From assembly GCA_934098435.1 (NCBI GenBank), contig CAKOOV010000004.1, positions 26,096-90,095 of the forward strand: a stretch of 64,000 bases of DNA, written 5' to 3'. Origin of the DNA: an uncultured Bacilli bacterium. GTDB lineage: Bacteria; Bacillota_I; Bacilli_A; RF39; UBA660. Made by a program: the position numbers and the translations under genes. The notes under the pieces are model-generated. The model saw only the letters and a list, made by a program, of their open reading frames with translations, ran no database searches and was not told the origin of the DNA. Positions 6,915-64,000 of this stretch are shown here, piece by piece (position 1 is the stretch's first letter; each line of letters begins with the position of its first letter).

Positions 6915-7997
6915 TTATTTGATTATTTCTGGTTTTAATTTTATATATCTATTATTTTCTAAATAACGTAATCTAAAGTTAGAATCTTTATCTATATTAT
7001 CAATATTGTATATAAGTATATATTCTTCATAATCTTTGGTATTTAATATATTATTATAGTAACCATTACCTAGGTCTGTAAAGTAATAGTAGTATTTTAA
7101 ACTAGGAATATATTCGTTATTTTTTCCTTCAAGTATAAAGTTATCAAGATTTAATTTATAATTATTATTTTTTCCTTTTAATGATATATCAATAATTAAA
7201 TAACTATTATTTTTACTAGTTTGTTTTCTTTCACTTATATAACTATCATTTACTTTTATATTGAAGTTTTTAGTACTTAGTGTATTACCTTCGGTTAATG
7301 TTTTATTGATAACATATTTGTTGAAAGGGAATATGATAATAAGAATAAGAAGAATAATTCCAAATATTATATTAAGCATAAATTTATTTTCAATATAATA
7401 GTATTTTAATTCCCTACTTAGTTTATGGCCTCCTCTTTTAATACCATCACTTGATAAATCAATATTTACTTCTACTTCTTCATTATCTTTTGTATCTAGT
7501 TTTAAGTCTTTTAGGTCTTTAGAAAAATTAAATTTCTTTATATCAAAGCCTAATCCTCTTATAAGTAGAGGAATGCATAAAATGAATAATCCCCAATAAT
7601 TAAATCTACTAATATCACGTAATAATCTAATATTTCTACCTGACATAGTACTTGTTTCTAGTATTTTAATATTACTATATAAATATACAAATAATATACC
7701 TGATATTATTGATACTAGAATAATAAGAATATATAATAGTCTTGGCTTTTTCTTAAAACGCATAAGGAAATATACTACTATTGATAATATTATAATAAGA
7801 ATAATACTTATAATTATAAAGGAATTAATATAATTAGCCGCTATTACCTCTATATTACCATTATTAGCTATATATTCGCTAAAAAATTTAAGAATATTAT
7901 TAGCCATTACTGTTATATATACCATAAGACTAAATAATATTAAATGAATAAATCTAAAATGCTTAATTAAAAAAGCATAAGGTCTTCTTAGTATCAT
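6915..7997 (-). CDS. Multi-pass membrane protein with a C-terminal extracytoplasmic domain
   Basis: Several hydrophobic segments. Start moved to ATG 7997 (MILRRPYAF) with RBS GAGGAG, because the promoter -10 lies at 8022-8027, inside the track's longer ORF. Confidence 0.7.
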   Translation of the reverse strand: MILRRPYAFLIKHFRFIHLILFSLMVYITVMANNILKFFSEYIANNGNIEVIAANYINSFIIISIILIIILSIVVYFLMRFKKKPRLLYILIILVSIISGILFVYLYSNIKILETSTMSGRNIRLLRDISRFNYWGLFILCIPLLIRGLGFDIKKFNFSKDLKDLKLDTKDNEEVEVNIDLSSDGIKRGGHKLSRELKYYYIENKFMLNIIFGIILLILIIIFPFNKYVINKTLTEGNTLSTKNFNIKVNDSYISERKQTSKNNSYLIIDISLKGKNNNYKLNLDNFILEGKNNEYIPSLKYYYYFTDLGNGYYNNILNTKDYEEYILIYNIDNIDKDSNFRLRYLENNRYIKLKPEIIK

Positions 7998-8021: not shown

Positions 8022-8050
8022 ATTATACAATAAACAAATATATTTATCAA
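8022..8050 (-). promoter_or_regulatory. Sigma-A type promoter of 6915..7997
   Basis: The minus strand reads TTGATA, a 17-nt spacer, then TATAAT. Confidence 0.65.
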
Positions 8051-8062
8051 GTATAAATATTT

Positions 8063-8121
8063 AAATTAAAGACAAATAATTTTGGCTTTAATTTACCTCT
8101 TAAGACTATAGGCTTAAGAGG
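8063..8121 (+). repeat. Tandem hairpin pair, locus 1 (conserved-apex hairpin family)
   Basis: aaattaaag-ACaaataattttGG-ctttaattt (8063-8094) and cctcttaag-ACTATAGG-cttaagagg (8096-8121). Located between a terminator and the next promoter. Confidence 0.8.
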
Positions 8122-8149
8122 ATAAAAAGAAAAAAGACACTTAGTCTTT
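8122..8149 (-). terminator. Intrinsic terminator of the LysM gene
   Basis: Minus strand AAAGAC-TAAGT-GTCTTT followed by TTTCTTTTT. It overlaps the stop codon. Confidence 0.7.
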
Positions 8150-10115: not shown

Positions 10116-11114
10116 TTACTTATCAACTTTTTCAAGAAGTGATTTCATTTCTTTTAATTTCATCTCCAATATTTTCTTGTCTATTAATTTTAATCTATAC
10201 TCAGAAATCATAGTTTGTGACATATTTTTACTGAGTGAATATTCAACTACTTCTTTGTCTTTTGAACTACACAAAATAATGCCAACACTAGGATTTTCAT
10301 AATCTTTTTTTACATTTCTGTCTAACGCTTCTAAATATAAATTCATTTTTCCTAAATACTCTGCCTTAAATTCTCCTAGTTTTAATTCAAATGCTACTAA
10401 ACATGATAATTCACGATTATAAAATAATAAATCAATAAAGAAATCATGATTGCCGATTTGCACTTTATATTCATCCCCGATATAAGTAAAATCATTTCCT
10501 ATTTCTAGAATAAAATCTTTTAAATTTCTAATTATAGATTTTTTTAAATCCATTTCATTATATTCATTCGGTAAGTCTAAAAACTCTAAACTATATGTAT
10601 CTAACAATCTAGTATTTGGATAATCGTCTTCATCAACTGTTTTCTTAATCGTTGGTAATTGCTTACCTTCAGACAATATAAATCTTTCATAATAGGATGA
10701 TGTTATTTGACGATCCAATTCTCTTTTTGAATAATTATTTTTAATAGCTAGTTTTAAATAAAAATATCTTTCTTCTTTAGTCTTTGCACCACTTAAAATA
10801 AGCAAATTATTAGTCCATGATAATTGCGTCACCAGTGGTGTCGCAATCTCGTCTTCTTTATATGTACTATAAAATTGTATCATCCGCTCGAGATTTCGTT
10901 TTGTAAAGCCTCTCAGTTGTGGATAGTTACTTTTCATAAATCCAGCGGCTTTTGCAACAATTTTATCACCATAACCACTATTTGATTTCAAATCGTACAA
11001 AAACTTTCCAATGTCTAAATATAATAAAACCATTTCTTCATTAACTTTTTTATATGCTCTACTTCTTCTATTTTCAATCATATTGACTATTTGATTAAAG
11101 TCAATATCTAACAC
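10116..11114 (-). CDS. YhcG-like PDDEXK nuclease (DUF1016 family)
   Basis: Family-typical N-terminal region (RSRAYKKVNEEMVLLYLDIGK) and C-terminal core (IDLLFYNRELSCLVAFELKLGEF). GTG 11114 sits behind GGAGGTGA. Confidence 0.75.
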   Translation of the reverse strand: MLDIDFNQIVNMIENRRSRAYKKVNEEMVLLYLDIGKFLYDLKSNSGYGDKIVAKAAGFMKSNYPQLRGFTKRNLERMIQFYSTYKEDEIATPLVTQLSWTNNLLILSGAKTKEERYFYLKLAIKNNYSKRELDRQITSSYYERFILSEGKQLPTIKKTVDEDDYPNTRLLDTYSLEFLDLPNEYNEMDLKKSIIRNLKDFILEIGNDFTYIGDEYKVQIGNHDFFIDLLFYNRELSCLVAFELKLGEFKAEYLGKMNLYLEALDRNVKKDYENPSVGIILCSSKDKEVVEYSLSKNMSQTMISEYRLKLIDKKILEMKLKEMKSLLEKVDK

Positions 11115-11264
11115 ATATATCACCTCCACAATGTAATTCTTTGTAAATTAATTATATCATTTTATAAATGATTTTACTAGTACTTACATTTATTTTACAT
11201 CTTTTAAATCTTTATTATAGATTAATTTATAATTTATTGGTATAATATAAGAGGATGTGATAGA

Positions 11265-12842: not shown

Positions 12843-12896
12843 CATAGCATAGACTTTGGGCTATGCTATGTCTCTTAAGACCTTAGGCTTAAGAGG
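12843..12896 (+). repeat. Tandem hairpin pair, locus 2
   Basis: catagcatag-ACTTTGGG-ctatgctatg (12843-12870) and tctcttaag-ACCTTAGG-cttaagagg (12871-12896). It begins 4 nt from the lon stop. Confidence 0.8.
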
Positions 12897-22307: not shown

Positions 22308-22384
22308 GGGCGATTAGCTCAGTTGGTTAGAGCACTTGCCTTACAAGCAAGGGGTCATAGGTTCGAGTCCTATATCGCCCACCA
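22308..22384 (+). tRNA. tRNA-Val (anticodon TAC), CCA encoded
   Basis: Cloverleaf read by hand: acceptor GGGCGAT/ATCGCCC, anticodon stem CTTGC/GCAAG, loop CTTACAA, GGTTCGAGTCC T-arm. Confidence 0.95.
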
Positions 22385-22391
22385 TTTTTTT

Positions 22392-22467
<76 letters not shown>

Positions 22468-22474
22468 TTTTTTT

Positions 22475-22558
22475 GGAGGGATAGCGAAGTGGTCAAACGC
22501 GGCAGACTGTAAATCTGTTCCTTCGGGTTCCATGGTTCAAATCCATGTCCCTCCACCA
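22475..22558 (+). tRNA. tRNA-Tyr (anticodon GTA), long variable arm, CCA encoded
   Basis: Acceptor GGAGGGA/TCCCTCC, anticodon loop CTGTAAA, variable arm TCCTTCGGGTTC. Confidence 0.95.
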
Positions 22559-22570
22559 CTTTTTGGTTAT

Positions 22571-22645
22571 TGCCTCGTAGCCAAGCGGTAAGGCACCACA
22601 CTTTGACTGTGGCATTCGTAAGTTCGAATCTTGCCGAGGCAACCA
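22571..22645 (+). tRNA. tRNA-Gln (anticodon TTG), CCA encoded
   Basis: Acceptor TGCCTCG/CGAGGCA, anticodon loop CTTTGAC. Confidence 0.93.
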
Positions 22646-22654
22646 TTCTATTTT

Positions 22655-22730
22655 GCTTCGTTAGCTCAGTTGGTAGAGCATTTGACTTTTAATCAAAGGG
22701 TCTGGAGTTCGAATCTCCAACGAGGCACCA
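22655..22730 (+). tRNA. tRNA-Lys (anticodon TTT), CCA encoded
   Basis: Acceptor GCTTCGT/ACGAGGC, anticodon loop CTTTTAA. Confidence 0.95.
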
Positions 22731-40699: not shown

Positions 40700-40753
40700 A
40701 ATTTAGAGACCCTAGGCTCTAAATTTTTTCTAATGACCTTAGGCATTAGAAAA
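40700..40753 (+). repeat. Tandem hairpin pair, locus 3
   Basis: aatttagag-ACCCTAGG-ctctaaatt (40700-40725), directly abutting ttttctaatg-ACCTTAGG-cattagaaaa (40726-40753). Confidence 0.8.
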
Positions 40754-40777
40754 CGGCGAATAATGAAATGTGAGACG

Positions 40778-50997: not shown

Positions 50998-53900
50998 CTA
51001 TTTTCCTTCATATTTGAATGTCTTAGAATCACTAGTACTATCCCCTATTTTTAGAGCAGTTATTTTTCCATTTTTATCTTTATAATAGTATATTAATTTT
51101 ATATTGTTATTTAATCCTAACTTTTGATTCTCATCTGTTGTTACTTCTATGGTTGGATATTCATCTTTATCTAGTTTAAATACTAATTGATTACCAGTAG
51201 TGGTATTACTTTGTCCTATTAAGCCTGAACCTACTTTACCAAATCCTTCAACTGTCATTGAGTATTCAATACCTGCTATATACTCTTGTAAATTAGTTGC
51301 TCCTTTAAATGTTATTAATACTTTATTGTTTGATAGTGCGGTTGGAGTTACTGCTCCTAGGGAGAATCCTAATTCACTCTTTGTATATTGACTCTTTCTT
51401 GCGTATATTTTTGTTTCTTTTTCTTCATCAGGTAAAGAAATATTATTTCTATATATGTCTGATGATACATAAATTGAATAGTTGGTATCTGGTTTTAGAT
51501 TAGTGAATGTTATTTCTATTTGATTGCTACCATATTTAGCTAAATCAATGGTTTTACTACAGTTGTCTTCATTACCTGCTGGACATACATGGTTGTAATC
51601 AGCATCTTGTAATTCTATAAATAATAATCCATCTTTAATTACTTTATCTCTATCTTCTAATGTGATAATGTATTTAATGCCATATGTGAATCCTGAATCA
51701 TTTTTATTTACTATTGCTTCTTGTTTTATTGTAAATGATGGTTCTTTTAATTCATGGAAGTTTTGACCCGCTGTAATATTTTTATCAGACATTGTGTCTT
51801 CGAATAATTTTAATTCTTTACCTTTATCTGTTGTTATAGCAGTAACGGTAAGAGTATAATAATCGTTTCCATATACTAAATTATCTTTAGTTATATCTCT
51901 TGATAATATTGCTTTTCTTCCTTTACCGATGTTTTCATCATTTATTTCTTCATTAGTTACTTTTCCATCAAATATTAATTCTCCATCTGGATTATGTACT
52001 TGATATTTAATATCAAAGTTTTTGTTATTCTTCAAATATGTTGTTAAGTTCATTATTCTGTTTAGGTATACATTATCTATTGTTTTTGAATCATAATTAT
52101 AGGCTACCCTATCAAGTATTTCTTCTGCTCCTAAGGTTTTAAAAGTACCCATATATTCTACATAGCCTTCTTTTTCATAATCGAATAATGGTGTTTTTAC
52201 ATTTTCTCCATTTTTATTCATATCAGCAGATATTTTATAATAATATCTAGTATCTGGATCTAATCCTGCAAAAGATATCTCACTTTTTAGACTTTCATAA
52301 TCTGTTTCAATTGTGTCTACAGGAACGTATTCTTCTTTACAATTTTCTTCATCTTCACCGCAAGTTTTCATAGTATAAATATCTATATAGAATTTATATT
52401 TGCCATTTGTTTTAATGAAATCACTTTCTAAAACGTTATCACTTGCAGATACATATACGTTCATAGCAGTTCCATTAATTGTTGGTGTTGGTTTTGATGT
52501 TGATACTTTAGGTGTGATACTTGTAAATTTGAATTTATTATTATCTGTTTGAATATTTATTTTATCTAAAACTTTTGGATTTAATGTATATTTAGTATTT
52601 TTATCTCTAAATCCACTTAATCCCAAGTTAGCTATACCATCTTTCTTAATAAAGTCACCATATTTAATGAATTGATTTTTACTTTTATCAACAATATCTG
52701 TTGAGGTTATATACCACACATCGTTTTGATCTTTATCTGTTTTTACTTCATAGCCAAATATTCCTGTAGGTTTGTTTGAAGTTGCATACGCTCCGTTTGG
52801 ATTTAAATATAAATATTGGCCTGGCATTTCTAGTGATGTTGTTTGGAAAACGTATCCTAATTTAGAAGCATTTTTTTCATCTACTACTCCTAAACTTTGG
52901 AAGTAATCTCCTAATAGTGATTTTTGACTAAATCCTGTATATCCTGTATCATAAAATCCTACTAATGAAACCTGAATATCTTTACCTTTGAATGATTCTA
53001 TATCATTGTAATCAAGAATAATACATTTATTATCATCACAGTCAGATAAGTTTGATATAACTTTTTCATATTTATCATTACCTGATGTTAATGTTAGAAG
53101 GTATGTTGATATTCTATTTAAAAATTCATTGTCATCTAAAACTATTTTTAATCTATTATCAAAATTGCCATATACTAGTTTATATCCTATATTATAATCT
53201 TTTGAATCATAATAACCATCAAAATAGTATTTCCCTATTGATATCTTAGCAGGATCTGATGTTTTAGTATTTGCTCTTTTATAATTTAAATTATATATAT
53301 CAGAATTGTTTAAGTTTGAAATGGTAAATGTTTTTATATCACTACTTTTTTCAAATTCAATACTATTTTCTTCTTCACTATCATTTACTTTGTAGTAGAA
53401 ATTATATTTATCGTCTTCATCTTTAAATAAGGCATTATCTATATCTTCAACATAGTATTTATATGTTATTGAATCTTTGGTACTATTATCAACATATAAT
53501 TTAAAGATTGGATCTTTTTTAATTGAAGTGAATGCTTTACTTATAGGTTTATTTGATGGGAATACAGAATCATCTGCTCCATCGTTATTACTATCAATAC
53601 TTATATCATACGAAAAACTATATGTGTTTCCTCTAGTTAATTTTGTGTCTTCTACTTTATAATCAGTTCCATAGTCTAAGAAGAAATATGTTGTGTAATT
53701 TTCTGTAGTCGTAAAATCGATTGTTTTTGTTTCAATTAATCTATTTCTTTGATCCTTAGCGTAAAAGTTTAATTTAGTAATTGGATGTTCACCTTGGAAG
53801 TATGTTTCTATTTTAGCTTTATCGAATATTGCATTTACTTCATAACCTATTATTGTTGAACCATCTAATTTATTATCATAACTTACACCGTATTTTGCTT

Positions 53901-56595
53901 GCATATCAGCGTCTTTTACGGTATCGTTAGTTATTTCTGTTACCGCTATGGTTGGTTCTGCTACTTCGTCTTCTAGTAATAGCATAGCGGGTGTTTCAAA
54001 TACATATTTGTTATTTAATATATCAAATTTATTGGTACCGCTATTATCATAGGCATCTGTTACTTCAAGTGTATAATATCTACTTAATTTTCCTCCAGAT
54101 ATTTCTCTTAGGGCATCTAGGTTTTCTATTCCGAACATTTTTGAAGTTAAATCAAATTCTTTGTTATAATATCTTGATTTTATATCCTCTGTTTCAGTAA
54201 AGCTTCCTATTGGTGCTGTTTGAATATTATTCTTAGTATCACCTTTATATAAATTAAATGTTAAAGATGATATTTTATCGGCATAGTCACTATCTGGTAC
54301 AGTAGATATCATTTCGGTGCTAACTACTATTGGGGTTTCAAAACTATATTGTTTTTGCTTCCAATTTTGCATTTGCAATGCTTCTATTCCTTTTGTAGTT
54401 ACCGCAAAGCTTCCTATGTATTGACCTTTTTGTAAGCCTTTACCATTATACATATCTATATCGGCGTATACTTCAAATGTATATAAAGTATTTTCTTTTA
54501 AACCACTTAATGCTAGTTTATATTCCATTGTTTCAGGATCAAACTTAACATCTTTTATGGCTATTCTTGTAGTTGAATTACCACCATAATATCTAATTAT
54601 AAAGTCATTAACTTTATTCATTTCAGGCTTGTCTTTACATTCTCTTCCTTCATTTGGTATTGTACAGCCTTCATCTTTTATTTTTACTGTTCCGACTATT
54701 TGATTAAAGTCTACTAATTCTTCTTTGAATTCAATTGTTGGTCTACCTATTACTTGGAAATAATTACTTAGTCCTGTTTCTATTTCGTTATATTTATAGT
54801 TATCATTATATTCTACAATCATTTTAAAACAATAATCTGTTTTATCTTCTAAATTATTTTCCCCTAATTTTAATTTTTGTTCTTTTAATGTATCACTACT
54901 AAAAGTATATACTGGCTTAGCATTTAGTATTTCACCATCAGTTAAATCTTCTGCTTTATATATTTCATAAGTATATTTTGTTATACTTGAGTCTTCATCT
55001 TGTGGCTTTTCCATTTTTAAGGTGAAACTTTTATTATCATTATCTGTTTCTACTGATATTTCACCTAAAGTTGGTTTGTTTTTTAGTGTTTTATCTGATG
55101 TTTCTATTGTATATATATTTGCATAATTAGTATTTTTTAAAATAACTGAATCTACTTTTACTTGATATTTTGTATTGTGTGTTAATTCCTCAAAAGAAAT
55201 ATTATTATCTTCACCATTAGTTATAGTGATTGTATTGCCCACTTTATTTCCTTCGGTATCATATAACGATACATTAGCGGATTTGATATCATTATTTTCG
55301 CCAAATTCTAATGAATATGATAATGAATTTTGTGTTACCATTTCGCGAACTAAATTTAGTGTTAAACTTTCGGTTTTAAATGTTTTTTGAAAATATTGTG
55401 TACCATTATTATTATTTTGTTCTGATATTGTCATTAGATAATCACAATTTGGTGATAATGAATTTATATTTACTTCTTGTATATCAGGAGCATTAGCTAA
55501 TATTTTAGAAAACTCCCTTTCTCCTGTAGTTATGTTTGTCAATGTCAATAATAAATCATCTTTAATGAAATTTCCAGTATCTATTACTTGGAAACTTGCA
55601 TTTAAACTATGAGTATCTACTTTAGCAGAAATTAAATCTATTGATACTTCTTGCTTTAACACTGAATTTGTTGTATCTCCTTCGCCTGATTCTCCTCCTG
55701 ATGGATTATTTTCCTCATTATTTTCAGGATTATTTTTTACATCAGTTTGATTTTCACCTTTATTATCTCCACTACCATTAGTAGTGCCATCAGTAGTGCC
55801 ATCAGTATTTTTCTTGTCATCATTTGATTTTACTTTACCATCGCTAGGTTTGATATCAATATTTTCATTACCATCAATAGTCATCTCAGATAAAGAAAGT
55901 TTTGTTTCATCATTATAGATAACATTCTTATCGCCAAGATTTATTTTTGTATTATCTCCTATAAAAATAGTTGTTCCGTCTGCTACAGTTTGATAGCTTC
56001 CTTCTTGGTTTTCTATTTTTACTATACCATCTTCTACAAATAGTATTTCAAAATAATCTCCACTAACAGTGTTATCATTACCTGCTAATTTAACTCTTAT
56101 ATCTTTTCCTACAACAATATATTTATTTTCGGTTATTCTGCCAAGAAAATTATTAAATATTAGTGTTTTATCGGCTGTTTCAATATAATAGCTACCATTA
56201 TTATACTTAATTATTGATTTATCTGTAATATTGTAATATGGAACTAGATTTTTATTGAATTTATCTAAGTCAAGGATAACACCATTTTTCATAAATGACA
56301 TTGATTTATCTAAATAATGAATAAAGTTTTCTTTGCTGGTACTTACTTCTTTATTGTCTGCATTCTTAAAAACATATTCTTCTTTTACGTTTTCTTTATA
56401 AACTGTATTATCATTGAAATATAGTTTTTTGCTGCTTGATGCAGTACTATTTATTATATATCCTGCACTATAAAATTCTTTTTCTGAATCTTTTGTTAAA
56501 AAGATTACTCCTATAGTTAAAATTGTTAAAGTTACAATGCTTATAATTAAAATTATCCAAAAACTTTTATCATTTATTTTCTTCATTTTTATCAC
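50998..56595 (-). CDS. Giant (about 1865 aa) N-terminally anchored surface protein with multiple FN3/Ig-like repeats
   Basis: One TM (FWIILIISIVTLTILTIGVIFL). At least 8 occurrences of the L-x-P/x-x-T/D-x-Y-x-h-x-h strand motif, for example LSPNCDYLMTI, LTHNTKYQVKV, LKENTLYTFEV, LDPDTRYYYKI, LKPDTNYSIYV. Confidence 0.75.
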   Translation of the reverse strand: MIKMKKINDKSFWIILIISIVTLTILTIGVIFLTKDSEKEFYSAGYIINSTASSSKKLYFNDNTVYKENVKEEYVFKNADNKEVSTSKENFIHYLDKSMSFMKNGVILDLDKFNKNLVPYYNITDKSIIKYNNGSYYIETADKTLIFNNFLGRITENKYIVVGKDIRVKLAGNDNTVSGDYFEILFVEDGIVKIENQEGSYQTVADGTTIFIGDNTKINLGDKNVIYNDETKLSLSEMTIDGNENIDIKPSDGKVKSNDDKKNTDGTTDGTTNGSGDNKGENQTDVKNNPENNEENNPSGGESGEGDTTNSVLKQEVSIDLISAKVDTHSLNASFQVIDTGNFIKDDLLLTLTNITTGEREFSKILANAPDIQEVNINSLSPNCDYLMTISEQNNNNGTQYFQKTFKTESLTLNLVREMVTQNSLSYSLEFGENNDIKSANVSLYDTEGNKVGNTITITNGEDNNISFEELTHNTKYQVKVDSVILKNTNYANIYTIETSDKTLKNKPTLGEISVETDNDNKSFTLKMEKPQDEDSSITKYTYEIYKAEDLTDGEILNAKPVYTFSSDTLKEQKLKLGENNLEDKTDYCFKMIVEYNDNYKYNEIETGLSNYFQVIGRPTIEFKEELVDFNQIVGTVKIKDEGCTIPNEGRECKDKPEMNKVNDFIIRYYGGNSTTRIAIKDVKFDPETMEYKLALSGLKENTLYTFEVYADIDMYNGKGLQKGQYIGSFAVTTKGIEALQMQNWKQKQYSFETPIVVSTEMISTVPDSDYADKISSLTFNLYKGDTKNNIQTAPIGSFTETEDIKSRYYNKEFDLTSKMFGIENLDALREISGGKLSRYYTLEVTDAYDNSGTNKFDILNNKYVFETPAMLLLEDEVAEPTIAVTEITNDTVKDADMQAKYGVSYDNKLDGSTIIGYEVNAIFDKAKIETYFQGEHPITKLNFYAKDQRNRLIETKTIDFTTTENYTTYFFLDYGTDYKVEDTKLTRGNTYSFSYDISIDSNNDGADDSVFPSNKPISKAFTSIKKDPIFKLYVDNSTKDSITYKYYVEDIDNALFKDEDDKYNFYYKVNDSEEENSIEFEKSSDIKTFTISNLNNSDIYNLNYKRANTKTSDPAKISIGKYYFDGYYDSKDYNIGYKLVYGNFDNRLKIVLDDNEFLNRISTYLLTLTSGNDKYEKVISNLSDCDDNKCIILDYNDIESFKGKDIQVSLVGFYDTGYTGFSQKSLLGDYFQSLGVVDEKNASKLGYVFQTTSLEMPGQYLYLNPNGAYATSNKPTGIFGYEVKTDKDQNDVWYITSTDIVDKSKNQFIKYGDFIKKDGIANLGLSGFRDKNTKYTLNPKVLDKINIQTDNNKFKFTSITPKVSTSKPTPTINGTAMNVYVSASDNVLESDFIKTNGKYKFYIDIYTMKTCGEDEENCKEEYVPVDTIETDYESLKSEISFAGLDPDTRYYYKISADMNKNGENVKTPLFDYEKEGYVEYMGTFKTLGAEEILDRVAYNYDSKTIDNVYLNRIMNLTTYLKNNKNFDIKYQVHNPDGELIFDGKVTNEEINDENIGKGRKAILSRDITKDNLVYGNDYYTLTVTAITTDKGKELKLFEDTMSDKNITAGQNFHELKEPSFTIKQEAIVNKNDSGFTYGIKYIITLEDRDKVIKDGLLFIELQDADYNHVCPAGNEDNCSKTIDLAKYGSNQIEITFTNLKPDTNYSIYVSSDIYRNNISLPDEEKETKIYARKSQYTKSELGFSLGAVTPTALSNNKVLITFKGATNLQEYIAGIEYSMTVEGFGKVGSGLIGQSNTTTGNQLVFKLDKDEYPTIEVTTDENQKLGLNNNIKLIYYYKDKNGKITALKIGDSTSDSKTFKYEGK

Positions 56596-56767: not shown

Positions 56768-56843
56768 GGGGCGTTAGCTCAGTTGGTAGAGCAACTGACT
56801 CTTAATCAGTGGGTCTAGGGTTCGAATCCCTAACGCCCCACCA
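56768..56843 (+). tRNA. tRNA-Lys (anticodon CTT), CCA encoded
   Basis: Acceptor GGGGCGT/ACGCCCC, anticodon loop CTCTTAA. Confidence 0.95.
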
Positions 56844-56868
56844 TTTTGATTTTTTTTATAGAAATCTC

Positions 56869-56897
56869 TTGTAATGTTGTTTTTTATATGGTATAAT
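56869..56897 (+). promoter_or_regulatory. Internal promoter ahead of tRNA-Ile/tRNA-Glu
   Basis: TTGTAA, a 17-nt spacer, then TGgTATAAT. Confidence 0.6.
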
Positions 56898-56917
56898 GTA
56901 GAAGCAATTCAAAAAAT

Positions 56918-56994
<77 letters not shown>

Positions 56995-59735: not shown

Positions 59736-59789
59736 TAATCATGAGACTATAGGCTCATGATTACCTCGAAAGACCTTAGGCTTGCGAGG
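59736..59789 (+). repeat. Tandem hairpin pair, locus 4
   Basis: taatcatgag-ACTATAGG-ctcatgatta (59736-59763), directly abutting cctcgaaag-ACCTTAGG-cttgcgagg (59764-59789, one A.G mismatch). Confidence 0.8.
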
Positions 59790-59909
59790 ATATAGCAAAA
59801 GACCACCATTTATAGCATATCCCTATATATATAATCTTATATATACCATTCTTTACCCGTGCGGGAAAAGTGTTTCCCACACATACTCCAGAACCAAGTT
59901 CCAAATAAC

Positions 59910-63691: not shown

Positions 63692-64000
63692 GGGGTCGCT
63701 TTTGGCTTCGACGGAAATACGAGTGTTTAATTAGCAAGACGTGTTTCTCTACGTTAGTGGGATAAATTAAATATAACTGGAAACAGCTATAAAAACGCTG
63801 TTGCTTATGCCTAATCTATAGGTAGCAACAGGTTCTCCTAATTCTTTGTCTGTGAGAATTAACGAGGACTTATAAAGCAGACTATATTATAATGTTTGTT
63901 TAGGCATTATGATGAATAACTATAAACTAGCGAGTAATTATGATGGTGGATTGTCTATTTACTTTGCGAATTTGATAATCCAATAATCTTGTAGAAGGTT
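63692..64000 (+). ncRNA. ssrA: tmRNA (SsrA), 3' end truncated by the window
   Basis: 5' GGGGTCGCTTTTGGCTTCGACGG tRNA-like end. Internal tag reading frame GGA AAC AGC TAT AAA AAC GCT GTT GCT TAT GCC TAA (63779-63814). Confidence 0.9.

Follow-up and report, generated by a model that had tools for sequence, protein, structure and literature searches.

The window, as the whole 64,000-nt stretch of DNA analyzed here is called, derives from an uncultured human-gut member of the Bacillota; it is 25% G+C, its GC skew is negative throughout, and nearly all of its genes, which include those for Spo0A, Lon, WhiA, RNase J, and spore-related proteins, lie on the minus strand. Eight hairpins, all intergenic and all on the plus strand, are present as four abutting pairs at 8062-8121 (locus 1), 12843-12896 (locus 2), 40700-40753 (locus 3), and 59736-59789 (locus 4). 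The initial annotation had placed eight hairpins at four intergenic loci, and all of them were confirmed, but the first starts at 8062 and not at 8063. The stems are 8-10 bp in length and perfect apart from a single A•G mismatch in the last hairpin of locus 4; seven of the eight apexes read AC(Y)N(T)RGG within a closing G and C, and the eighth has AC..GG with 10 extra bases. The hairpins and adjacent features are as follows.

8022 to 8050, minus strand: promoter-like site of the next gene, TTGATA-17-TATAAT, 11/12 matches
8062 to 8095, plus strand: locus 1, hairpin 1; stem of 10 bp; arms TAAATTAAAG and CTTTAATTTA; apex AC-AAATAATTTT-GG (10-nt insert)
8096 to 8121, plus strand: locus 1, hairpin 2; stem of 9 bp; arms CCTCTTAAG and CTTAAGAGG; apex ACTATAGG
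8122 to 8149, minus strand: weak intrinsic terminator of the LysM gene, read from the sequence; AAAGAC-UAAGU-GUCUUU, then UUUUUUCUUUUU
12843 to 12870, plus strand: locus 2, hairpin 1; stem of 10 bp; arms CATAGCATAG and CTATGCTATG; apex ACTTTGGG
12871 to 12896, plus strand: locus 2, hairpin 2; stem of 8 bp at 12872-12895, or 9 if T•G is counted; arms (T)CTCTTAAG and CTTAAGAG(G); apex ACCTTAGG
40700 to 40725, plus strand: locus 3, hairpin 1; stem of 9 bp; arms AATTTAGAG and CTCTAAATT; apex ACCCTAGG
40726 to 40753, plus strand: locus 3, hairpin 2; stem of 10 bp; arms TTTTCTAATG and CATTAGAAAA; apex ACCTTAGG
40754 to 40777, plus strand: locus 3, candidate third module (variant last hairpin), CGGC-GA-AUA-[AUGAAA]-UGU-GA-GACG
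59736 to 59763, plus strand: locus 4, hairpin 1; stem of 10 bp; arms TAATCATGAG and CTCATGATTA; apex ACTATAGG
59764 to 59789, plus strand: locus 4, hairpin 2; stem of 9 bp with one A•G mismatch; arms CCTCGAAAG and CTTGCGAGG; apex ACCTTAGG

The LysM terminator overlaps the LysM stop codon and is upstream of the locus 1 pair in the direction of the gene, and the TTGATA-17-TATAAT site directly follows the pair in the same direction; the pair is located between terminator and promoter, as had been claimed for it. In the apex of hairpin 1 at this locus, the A•G mismatch is followed by a C-G and three A-U pairs and then a UAAU loop, and the differences between strains are confined to this apex extension. 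Hairpin 2 is a common last-hairpin module with a CC..GG base and has an identical stem in clusters L035 and L048. At locus 2, the apex of hairpin 1 is ACTTTGGG in the window and ACTTTCGG in some strains; hairpin 2 ends 4 nt from the stop codon of lon on the opposite strand, and the pair lies between this stop codon and a bidirectional terminator. The pairs of loci 1 and 3 come after canonical terminators. The (T)AATTTAGAG module of locus 3 is the first-hairpin module with the widest spread, and in hairpin 2 of that locus the second pair from the apex is T-A in place of the usual A-T (closing T-A, then G-C). On the minus strand, which is the sense strand of the genes, the last hairpin of loci 2 and 4 runs into a T-rich tail and gives rise to a terminator-like flag (at locus 4, for hairpin 1 with the tail AATAATTATT). 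Thus, of the two statements made initially, that the hairpins are distinct from bona fide terminators agrees with the separate canonical terminators at loci 1-3, whereas that they lack T-runs holds for the plus strand but not for the minus strand of loci 2 and 4.

Locus 3 probably carries a third, variant hairpin at 40754-40777. It would have tandem G•A pairs and a G•A-rich base, as in last hairpins, and is without the AGAC/GGCU apex; counterparts can be aligned after hairpin 2 in five relatives (L013, L037, L079, L081, and L120). Because standard energy folding predicts no hairpin at 40754-40777, it is counted here as inferred.

The apex had been considered improbable by chance, and this is borne out by the frequency of GACNNNNGGC, which occurs 8 times in the window as compared with an expectation of 2.1; a count of 8 was reached in 0 of 100 shuffles. 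Seven of these eight copies are those of the hairpins and are flanked by perfectly complementary arms of at least 8 bp, the chance of which is, by our own estimate, about 1e-4 per site at the composition of the window. The folding z-scores of the pairs at the window loci range from -3.3 to -6.2, and each hairpin has an energy of about -10 kcal/mol. A covariance model trained on 84 hairpins, from other genomes only, recovers all eight window hairpins on the plus strand, five of them with E <= 1e-3; the scores include 38 bits (E 1.4e-6) for hairpin 2 of locus 1 and 26 bits (E 1.2e-3) for hairpin 2 of locus 4. Reverse-strand echoes excepted, the scan of the window with this model gave no further match better than E = 0.1.

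Structure and Spread of the Hairpin Family

Each unit is a hairpin about 28 nt long whose AT-rich stem of 9-10 bp can have almost any sequence, and clusters are composed of two or three such hairpins, arranged head to tail with a spacing of 0-2 nt. The invariant top of the hairpin comprises A-U, G-C, A•G, and C-G, and the cap is usually a YWUA tetraloop and sometimes a longer helix. The longer apexes, found at 8062-8095 in the window and in the first hairpins of many relatives, always have A opposite G, then a C-G pair and further pairs, and therefore the constant core is a 5'-AGAC/GGCU-3' helix with one A•G mismatch. The 8-nt apex loop described initially is indeed conserved but is better described as this helix. 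The two pairs below the mismatch are G-C in 130/130 and A-T in 129/130 unique hairpins, although these values are in part forced by the search pattern. The 12-mer AGACYWTAGGCT occurs 143 times, all but about two of them within hairpins; it is essentially never found without complementary arms and never in coding DNA. Last hairpins often start with CC and end with GG, giving a G/C-clamped base, and frequently contain GA/GA, GAA/GAA, or GGA/GAA purine-purine internal loops. The AC..GG strand has an A-rich 3' flank (57-63% A) in both gene configurations and a 5' flank that ends in TT, the flanks being otherwise not conserved; a position weight matrix of the flanks of 60 unique clusters contains the A-richness and TT alone, with GTAG and GTGG absent.

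A scan with an exact pattern of one genome per species gave about 60 true tandem hairpin pairs among the matches listed, with very diverse stems. Tandem pairs are present in at least 16 related genomes, all of them low-GC (23-30%) MAGs titled uncultured Bacilli, Tenericutes, Clostridium sp. CAG:302, or Firmicutes CAG:321; together with the performance of the covariance model from other genomes, this upholds the expectation that the apex would be conserved in relatives. With a tighter pattern applied to metagenome contigs, true hairpins were found in 111 of the 120 loci among the matches listed, mostly from human gut; the copy numbers per genome from both scans are lower bounds. The pooled lineage DNA (1.39 Mb) contains 126 unique clusters; many loci are orthologues of one another, so that pooled counts are not fully independent. 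Beyond the ascertained cluster, the density is about one extra cluster per 22 kb, and the overall estimate is about one per 16-22 kb, with which the four clusters in the 64 kb of the window agree; the number of clusters per genome is therefore of the order of 100. All four window clusters are present in each of the eight other strain contigs examined.

The initial annotation had known of no described motif with this apex. No match to Rfam 15 was found at the window loci at gathering thresholds or at the loci of eight relatives at E <= 5, the literature searched for tandem hairpins and for REP/RAYT in Firmicutes did not contain the motif, and literature matches to the apex sequence were to primers and other unrelated sequences. 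The hairpins constitute a previously undescribed family of small modular repeats in a low-GC uncultured gut lineage. Several matches were discarded: a single match in a viral contig is a collagen-like coding repeat and not a hairpin, matches in GC-rich and Bacteroidota genomes are short tandem coding or other repeats that lack arms, and the AAGACCTTGGGCTTTGCCCAAA repeat of Anaerotignum and Lachnospiraceae is unrelated to the family. There are, in addition, isolated copies elsewhere. In a proteobacterial MAG of 63% G+C (L044), three hairpins with GC-rich stems and an AGAC..GGCT top abut one another, and the third of them lies outside what the search pattern imposed; two other genomes (L065 and L076) share a pair with compensatory differences. 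On the basis of these cases, the core may be recognized by something more widespread than the lineage.

Selection, Copying, and Genomic Context

Non-Watson-Crick positions in the stems, viewed on the AC..GG strand, are almost all G•A, A•G, and A•A, and G•T mismatches outnumber A•C mismatches by 13 to 3. When orthologous hairpins were matched by the homology of their flanks, independently of the hairpins themselves, 10 compensatory double changes were identified, 8 of them of the transition type, and changes from Watson-Crick pairs to G•T and to A•C numbered 3 and 0, respectively, on the AC..GG strand. The mismatch types and the orthologous substitutions therefore show that the AC..GG strand, which may be RNA or ssDNA, is kept foldable as a single strand by purifying selection. 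The mean identity of clusters is 92% as compared with 88% for 120-nt flanks that partly include coding ends. The family alignment gives a large covariation score, but with some circularity, since being a hairpin was the criterion by which its sequences were selected. Compensatory variation of the stems, proposed initially from the differences between copies in the window, is supported by the double changes at orthologous loci, but much of the diversity reflects different reusable modules and not drift of a single sequence.

The evidence for such modules comes from copies at unrelated sites. Clusters L022 and L048 belong to one genome, in which they lie on separate contigs beside different genes. 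They agree at all 56 nt (100% identity) of a segment that starts 1 nt ahead of hairpin 1 and closes with hairpin 2, and they are unrelated beyond these limits; identity of this extent at unrelated loci shows copying and not convergence. In many other non-orthologous pairs, the homology begins and stops at the edges of the hairpins. Individual hairpins (27-29 nt, 96-100% identity) turn up again in new combinations and in other genomes, some of them twice within a genome, although a few of these matches, involving AT-rich 9-mers, are possibly due to chance. Sharp homology edges and module shuffling therefore favor copying at the DNA level. No target-site duplication was detected, the longest word shared by the flanks being 6.6 nt as compared with 6.5 nt in controls.

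At the 3' end of lon, both the window and a relative (82% amino acid identity) have a cluster with entirely different modules, and cluster sites persist while their modules turn over. Decay is also seen: one relative has lost the 5' arm and apex of a first hairpin, and a different locus has a hairpin 2 with its apex deleted or replaced. Within the species the clusters are fixed, and across species they persist at syntenic sites. No insertion polymorphism was found among strains (the window plus eight strain contigs), and identical copies within a genome are few, so that nothing suggests mobility at present. The initial annotation had recommended a search for an IS200/IS605 tnpA or RAYT gene; in weak tblastn searches with four approximate Y1 queries, no Y1/RAYT gene was found (nothing at E < 0.009) in about 1.8 Mb of lineage DNA near hairpins, of which about 1.4 Mb is low-GC. 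A multi-context gene screen for an associated enzyme yielded only an array of ORF6N-domain paralogues, probably one locus per genome. The C-terminal half of the ORF6N paralogue has no Pfam match; the hairpin pair at this locus lies on the sense strand between two cistrons, bounded by a stop codon and the following ribosome-binding site.

Of the 126 unique clusters, one is inside an ORF. Clusters tend to have a stop codon a few tens of bases away or less, on one side or the other, and they occupy a non-essential part of intergenic spacers in either orientation. Relative to the AC..GG strand, the surrounding genes are (-,-) in 43 cases, (+,+) in 35, convergent in 15, and divergent in 9; GC skew on this strand is positive at 49 loci and negative at 46. 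Across the family there is, accordingly, no orientation bias with respect to genes or GC skew, and because the counts of 43:35 and 49:46 are nearly even, the uniform orientation in the window is a local feature. The common orientation opposite to the genes that had been noted from the window is real there but does not extend to the family, and the proposed test for a bias relative to replication gave none by GC skew. The neighboring genes are diverse housekeeping genes, among them polC, polA, ruvB, uvrA, uvrC, mutL, rmuC, recD2, lon, leuS, and those for RNase R and RNase J; a repair-gene regulon was rejected, as further neighbors are diverse.

When the gene reads the complement strand, a T tail follows the cluster in 22/58 cases and a separate terminator is present in 34/58; when it reads the AC..GG strand, the corresponding values are 7/51 and 25/51. 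An intrinsic terminator, consisting of a G+C-rich hairpin and a U-tract, is not formed on the AC..GG strand, where the 3' flank is A-rich. The clusters are not ordinary terminators, but some copies, such as those of window loci 2 and 4, may double as one in one orientation.

Upstream of hairpin 1, -10-like hexamers are in modest excess, which is due to one subfamily; there is none elsewhere. In this subfamily, found at 10 or more loci, a conserved leader, (G)CTTATATATAATAGATATGTAGATATA, is immediately 5' of hairpin 1 and contains TATAAT 15-17 nt before the hairpin; the sequence farther upstream is not conserved. At L070 (4560-4730), two hairpins come after the leader, then an A-rich stretch and an intrinsic terminator, and the whole is flanked by two other terminators; it has the layout of a small RNA gene. 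At other loci, a convergent gene lies ahead of this leader, which points into its 3' end.

Comparison with Known Repeats and RNA Motifs

Most of what is understood mechanistically about dispersed palindromic repeats comes from Proteobacteria. The family resembles the REP/BIME and REPIN-RAYT systems of that phylum in consisting of short imperfect palindromes, at about 100 or more strictly intergenic copies that are mostly 3' of genes, in its mosaic arrays, in the layout of stem, irregularity, and short stem-loop, and in the compensatory maintenance of the hairpins; long vertical persistence, the absence of target duplication, and a plausible role as stabilizer of mRNA 3' ends are further points of similarity. 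To our knowledge, REP-type Y1 transposases are rare in low-GC Bacillota. REPs, as defined for TnpA-REP/RAYT systems, have GTAG or GTGG 0-2 nt 5' of the hairpin, a fully paired basal stem of 7-20 nt that is G/C-rich at its base and is followed by a loop of 2-5 nt or by a second stem after a bulge of 1-3 nt, and a cognate single-copy Y1 transposase (RAYT) that is typically flanked by REPs (PMC6006769). In the hairpins described here, the length of the stem and the arrangement of stem, A•G, C-G, and tetraloop fit this description, but the base is AT-rich except in last hairpins, and neither GTAG nor GTGG is present in the 5' flanks of the 60 unique clusters. What is conserved is the apex, and not the stem or a 5' tetranucleotide, and the stems are diverse as well as AT-rich. 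In contrast with REP/REPIN arrays, the units are tandem and direct as opposed to alternating or inverted, no RAYT was found in the approximately 1.8 Mb searched, and the inverted REPs that form one long hairpin in a REPIN have no counterpart, all clusters being head to tail on one strand. Because the tetranucleotide and inverted-doublet definitions fail, the family is filed as a REP/BIME-like variant and not as a member. Of the three roles proposed in the initial annotation, that of a REP/BIME- or PATE-like element is the best anatomical fit, but with the reservation that GTAG/GTGG and a GC-rich base are lacking.

The likeness to PATEs of the IS200/IS605 type lies in two hairpins of the same orientation on one strand, with single-strand structure as the recognized form. 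As in these elements, there is no target duplication and the ends are sharp beside subterminal hairpins; in the leader subfamily, about 27 conserved nt before hairpin 1 and an end just after hairpin 2 recall a left-end and right-end geometry. However, the preference of the top strand of IS200/IS605 elements for the lagging-strand template is not seen (GC skew 49:46), no conserved target tetranucleotide was seen, no full-length parent IS or TnpA was found, and forms with three hairpins and with a single hairpin occur, with exchange of modules. The BOX elements of Streptococcus pneumoniae and the NIME/Correia-type mosaic repeats of Neisseria are likewise modular intergenic repeats of small genomes with a variable number of internal modules, stable stem-loops, and promoter-like sequence in some copies, but their conserved modules are 45-150 nt, whereas the present unit is about 28 nt with a conserved core of 8-12 nt.

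Tandem hairpins with covarying stems and a conserved loop are also found in ANTAR targets, the guanidine-II (mini-ykkC) motif, and the ThrRS operator. Such dual-hairpin RNA sites are read by a dimer or through loop-loop contact and are located in the 5' leaders of specific genes, in one orientation and in few copies per genome, whereas the hairpin family numbers about 100 loci of both orientations, for the most part on the 3' side of genes. An ANTAR target, with two short hairpins that have hexaloops (A1, G4) and of which the second overlaps a terminator in a 5' leader, was rejected; the loops are 8 nt (ACYWUAGG), or a tetraloop above A•G, most of the positions are 3' of a gene, and no terminator overlaps the hairpins. 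Comparison by eye indicated a misfit at the defining positions of tRNA anticodon or T-arm mimics, K-turns, SECIS elements, and IREs, and likewise of CsrA GGA sites, type I-F CRISPR repeats, integron attC sites, Xer/dif-like sites, and restriction sites (CCTNAGG).

Interpretation and Significance

The reading adopted here, tentatively and with a little less than even confidence, is that the hairpins are lineage-specific REP/BIME-like repeats that were dispersed by a structure-specific enzyme and have been kept as useful 3'-end barriers. Hairpin modules would have been dispersed by precise copying of a folded single strand without target duplication, and the AGAC/GGCU top would be read by a structure-specific protein, most likely an HUH/Y1-type or analogous ssDNA enzyme. 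Resident hairpins would then be retained because they are useful; in transcripts they may act as 3' exonuclease barriers or back-up terminators, by analogy with REP of Escherichia coli. The positions of clusters relative to genes match the behavior of REP. On the other side of the account are the lack of a Y1/RAYT gene in about 1.8 Mb (approximate queries), of the REP tetranucleotide, and of a GC-rich base; the tandem direct units; the compensatory changes at fixed loci, which suggest a function for the host that a purely selfish element does not require; the absence of replication-strand bias and of a sign of current mobility; and the promoter-like leader subfamily, including one copy with its own terminator and the look of an RNA gene.

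The main alternative, conceivable although rather unlikely, is that the hairpins are structured RNA modules, the AC..GG strand being transcribed from a promoter of its own or within the transcripts of neighbors to provide a multivalent site for a dimeric or oligomeric RNA-binding protein. Such a protein would read the A•G/C-G apex (compare the dual hairpins of ANTAR and the GGA hairpins of CsrA), and promoter-bearing copies would act as small RNAs or sponges. The substitutions are typical of RNA helices, with 8/10 compensatory changes of the transition type and G•U intermediates on one strand only, and tandem G•A pairs in internal loops, the TATAAT leader subfamily with at least 10 loci (including L070 with leader, two hairpins, and intrinsic terminator), the sense-strand intercistronic pair of the ORF6N locus, and the greater conservation of clusters than of flanks are all consistent with this. 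However, the random orientation with respect to genes means that about half of the copies would need a promoter of their own, which would often have to fit in 30-100 nt already holding the promoter of a neighbor; a general promoter signal is absent from copies that do not belong to the leader subfamily, the AC..GG strand has no terminator and an A-rich 3' flank, the sharp homology edges and module shuffling argue for copying of DNA, and no candidate protein was identified.

Two further explanations carry less weight. That the hairpins are locally evolved ordinary or auxiliary terminators or 3'-end stabilizers, the apex being a stable cap and not a recognition site, is improbable: the clusters are usually just 3' of a stop codon, a T-rich tail is present on the complement strand in 22/58 (window loci 2 and 4 included), and each pair has a stronger fold than the canonical terminators beside it, but a separate canonical terminator is found in 34/58 and 25/51 and precedes the pair at window loci 1 and 3, the T tail occurs in only 7/51 clusters of the other orientation, an invariant 8-base core with a destabilizing A•G is unexpected from stability alone, and identical 56-nt copies at unrelated loci indicate copying. 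A double-stranded DNA word, serving as a genome-maintenance operator or DNA-uptake sequence, in which the 12-bp AGACYWTAGGCT matters and the arms are incidental, is very improbable indeed. Neisseria uptake sequences are biased toward replication and repair genes, and such a word would fit the independence of orientation and the many replication and repair neighbors (polC, polA, ruvB, uvrA, uvrC, mutL, rmuC, and recD2). The reading is largely refuted by the virtual absence of the 12-mer without complementary arms and its complete absence from coding DNA; selection for pairing is shown by the strand asymmetry of mismatches and by the compensatory changes, extended-apex variants replace the center of the word, the neighbors are otherwise diverse housekeeping genes, and a spacing of 27-28 bp does not correspond to an integral number of helical turns.

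The REP/BIME-like reading, if correct, would place an apex-conserving family with 28-nt modularity in low-GC gut Bacillota without the REP hallmark and would thereby extend the current picture of dispersed palindromic repeats. The presence of about 100 strong hairpins in a genome of 1.5-2 Mb will influence where transcripts end, where operons are delimited, and how these genomes are assembled or annotated, and the core is a compact and very specific sequence marker for the lineage in metagenomes. The signature of substitution in a single strand makes the choice between RNA and ssDNA directly testable in existing gut metatranscriptomes. The family points to a hairpin-reading protein, by which its invariant tip is probably recognized. 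A more specific proposal, speculative and on balance doubtful, is that the AGAC/GGCU hairpins are the sites of a putative structure-specific protein other than a RAYT/IS200-type Y1 enzyme, either a new kind of enzyme that copies modules as small as 28 nt or a global RNA-binding protein, which may have about 100 genomic sites together with dedicated promoter-driven hairpin sRNAs. Either version, if true, would represent a new nucleic acid/protein system in an abundant uncultured lineage of the human gut.

Further features of the window and of other contigs

Further features of the window, and an RNA from another contig, are as follows.

Window 10116-11129, (-) strand: YhcG/DUF1016 PDDEXK-nuclease gene
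Window 22308-22727, (+) strand: tRNA cluster
Window 50998-56595, (-) strand: 1865-aa ORF
Window 56768-56991, (+) strand: tRNA cluster
Window 59845-59875, (-) strand: G+C-rich hairpin GUGUGGGAAA-CACU-UUUCCCGCAC
Window 63692-64000, (+) strand: tmRNA gene, truncated by the window end
L024 (a contig from outside the window) 7331-7455, (-) strand: DUF3800-I RNA (Rfam RF02969, 66 bits)

No hairpin cluster adjoins the tmRNA gene or either tRNA cluster of the window. In the relative L086, a tRNA gene is followed after 77 nt by a trio of hairpins. In L024 a leader-type pair, of the subfamily with a conserved TATAAT-containing leader, is found about 130 nt from the DUF3800-I RNA, which itself adjoins a 262-aa ORF.

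The hairpin at 59845-59875, located between the stop codon of a 527-aa ORF and hairpin pair 4, is unusual in DNA of 25% G+C and has no U-tract. The 1865-aa ORF gives only faint matches, to fibronectin-III and purple-acid-phosphatase N-terminal domains, and its product is a large uncharacterised protein, probably located at the cell surface. Three strain contigs share the YhcG/DUF1016 gene with the window, but strain contig L002 lacks it between the same neighbours, which makes the gene strain-variable.

A repeat that shares a word with the family

A separate repeat, AAGACCTTGGGCTT-TGCCCAAA..., whose tandem units recur roughly every 28 nt, is found in Anaerotignum, Lachnospiraceae, and Ruminococcus MAGs (L012, L039, L042, L074, L084, L098, L100, and L104). 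It has the word ACCTTGGG in common with the hairpin family but folds differently, as TTGGGC/GCCCAA, and was rejected as unrelated.

Hairpin pairs in ORF6N arrays

Tandem arrays of paralogous genes in relatives (L021, L029, L038, L110, L129, L140, L147, L152, L162, L170, L200, L202, and L238) encode proteins of roughly 290 aa that carry an ORF6N domain (PF10543); the window has no copy. The C-terminal half of these proteins matches nothing in Pfam, and a stretch FHDRFIIID...GAS looks, by eye, similar to a PLD nuclease. In 12 of the 22 gene copies, a hairpin pair on the same strand as the gene begins 5 nt before its ORF ends; roughly 14 nt past the pair, the next gene starts with its ribosome-binding site and ATG.

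Where an ORF6N gene of L238 reaches its 3' end, around position 1457, the arms of hairpin 1 do not pair, the 5' arm CATGAGTAAG being from one allele and the 3' arm CTCTATCATA from another. Either the two alleles crossed over at the conserved apex, or the hairpin is an assembly chimera.
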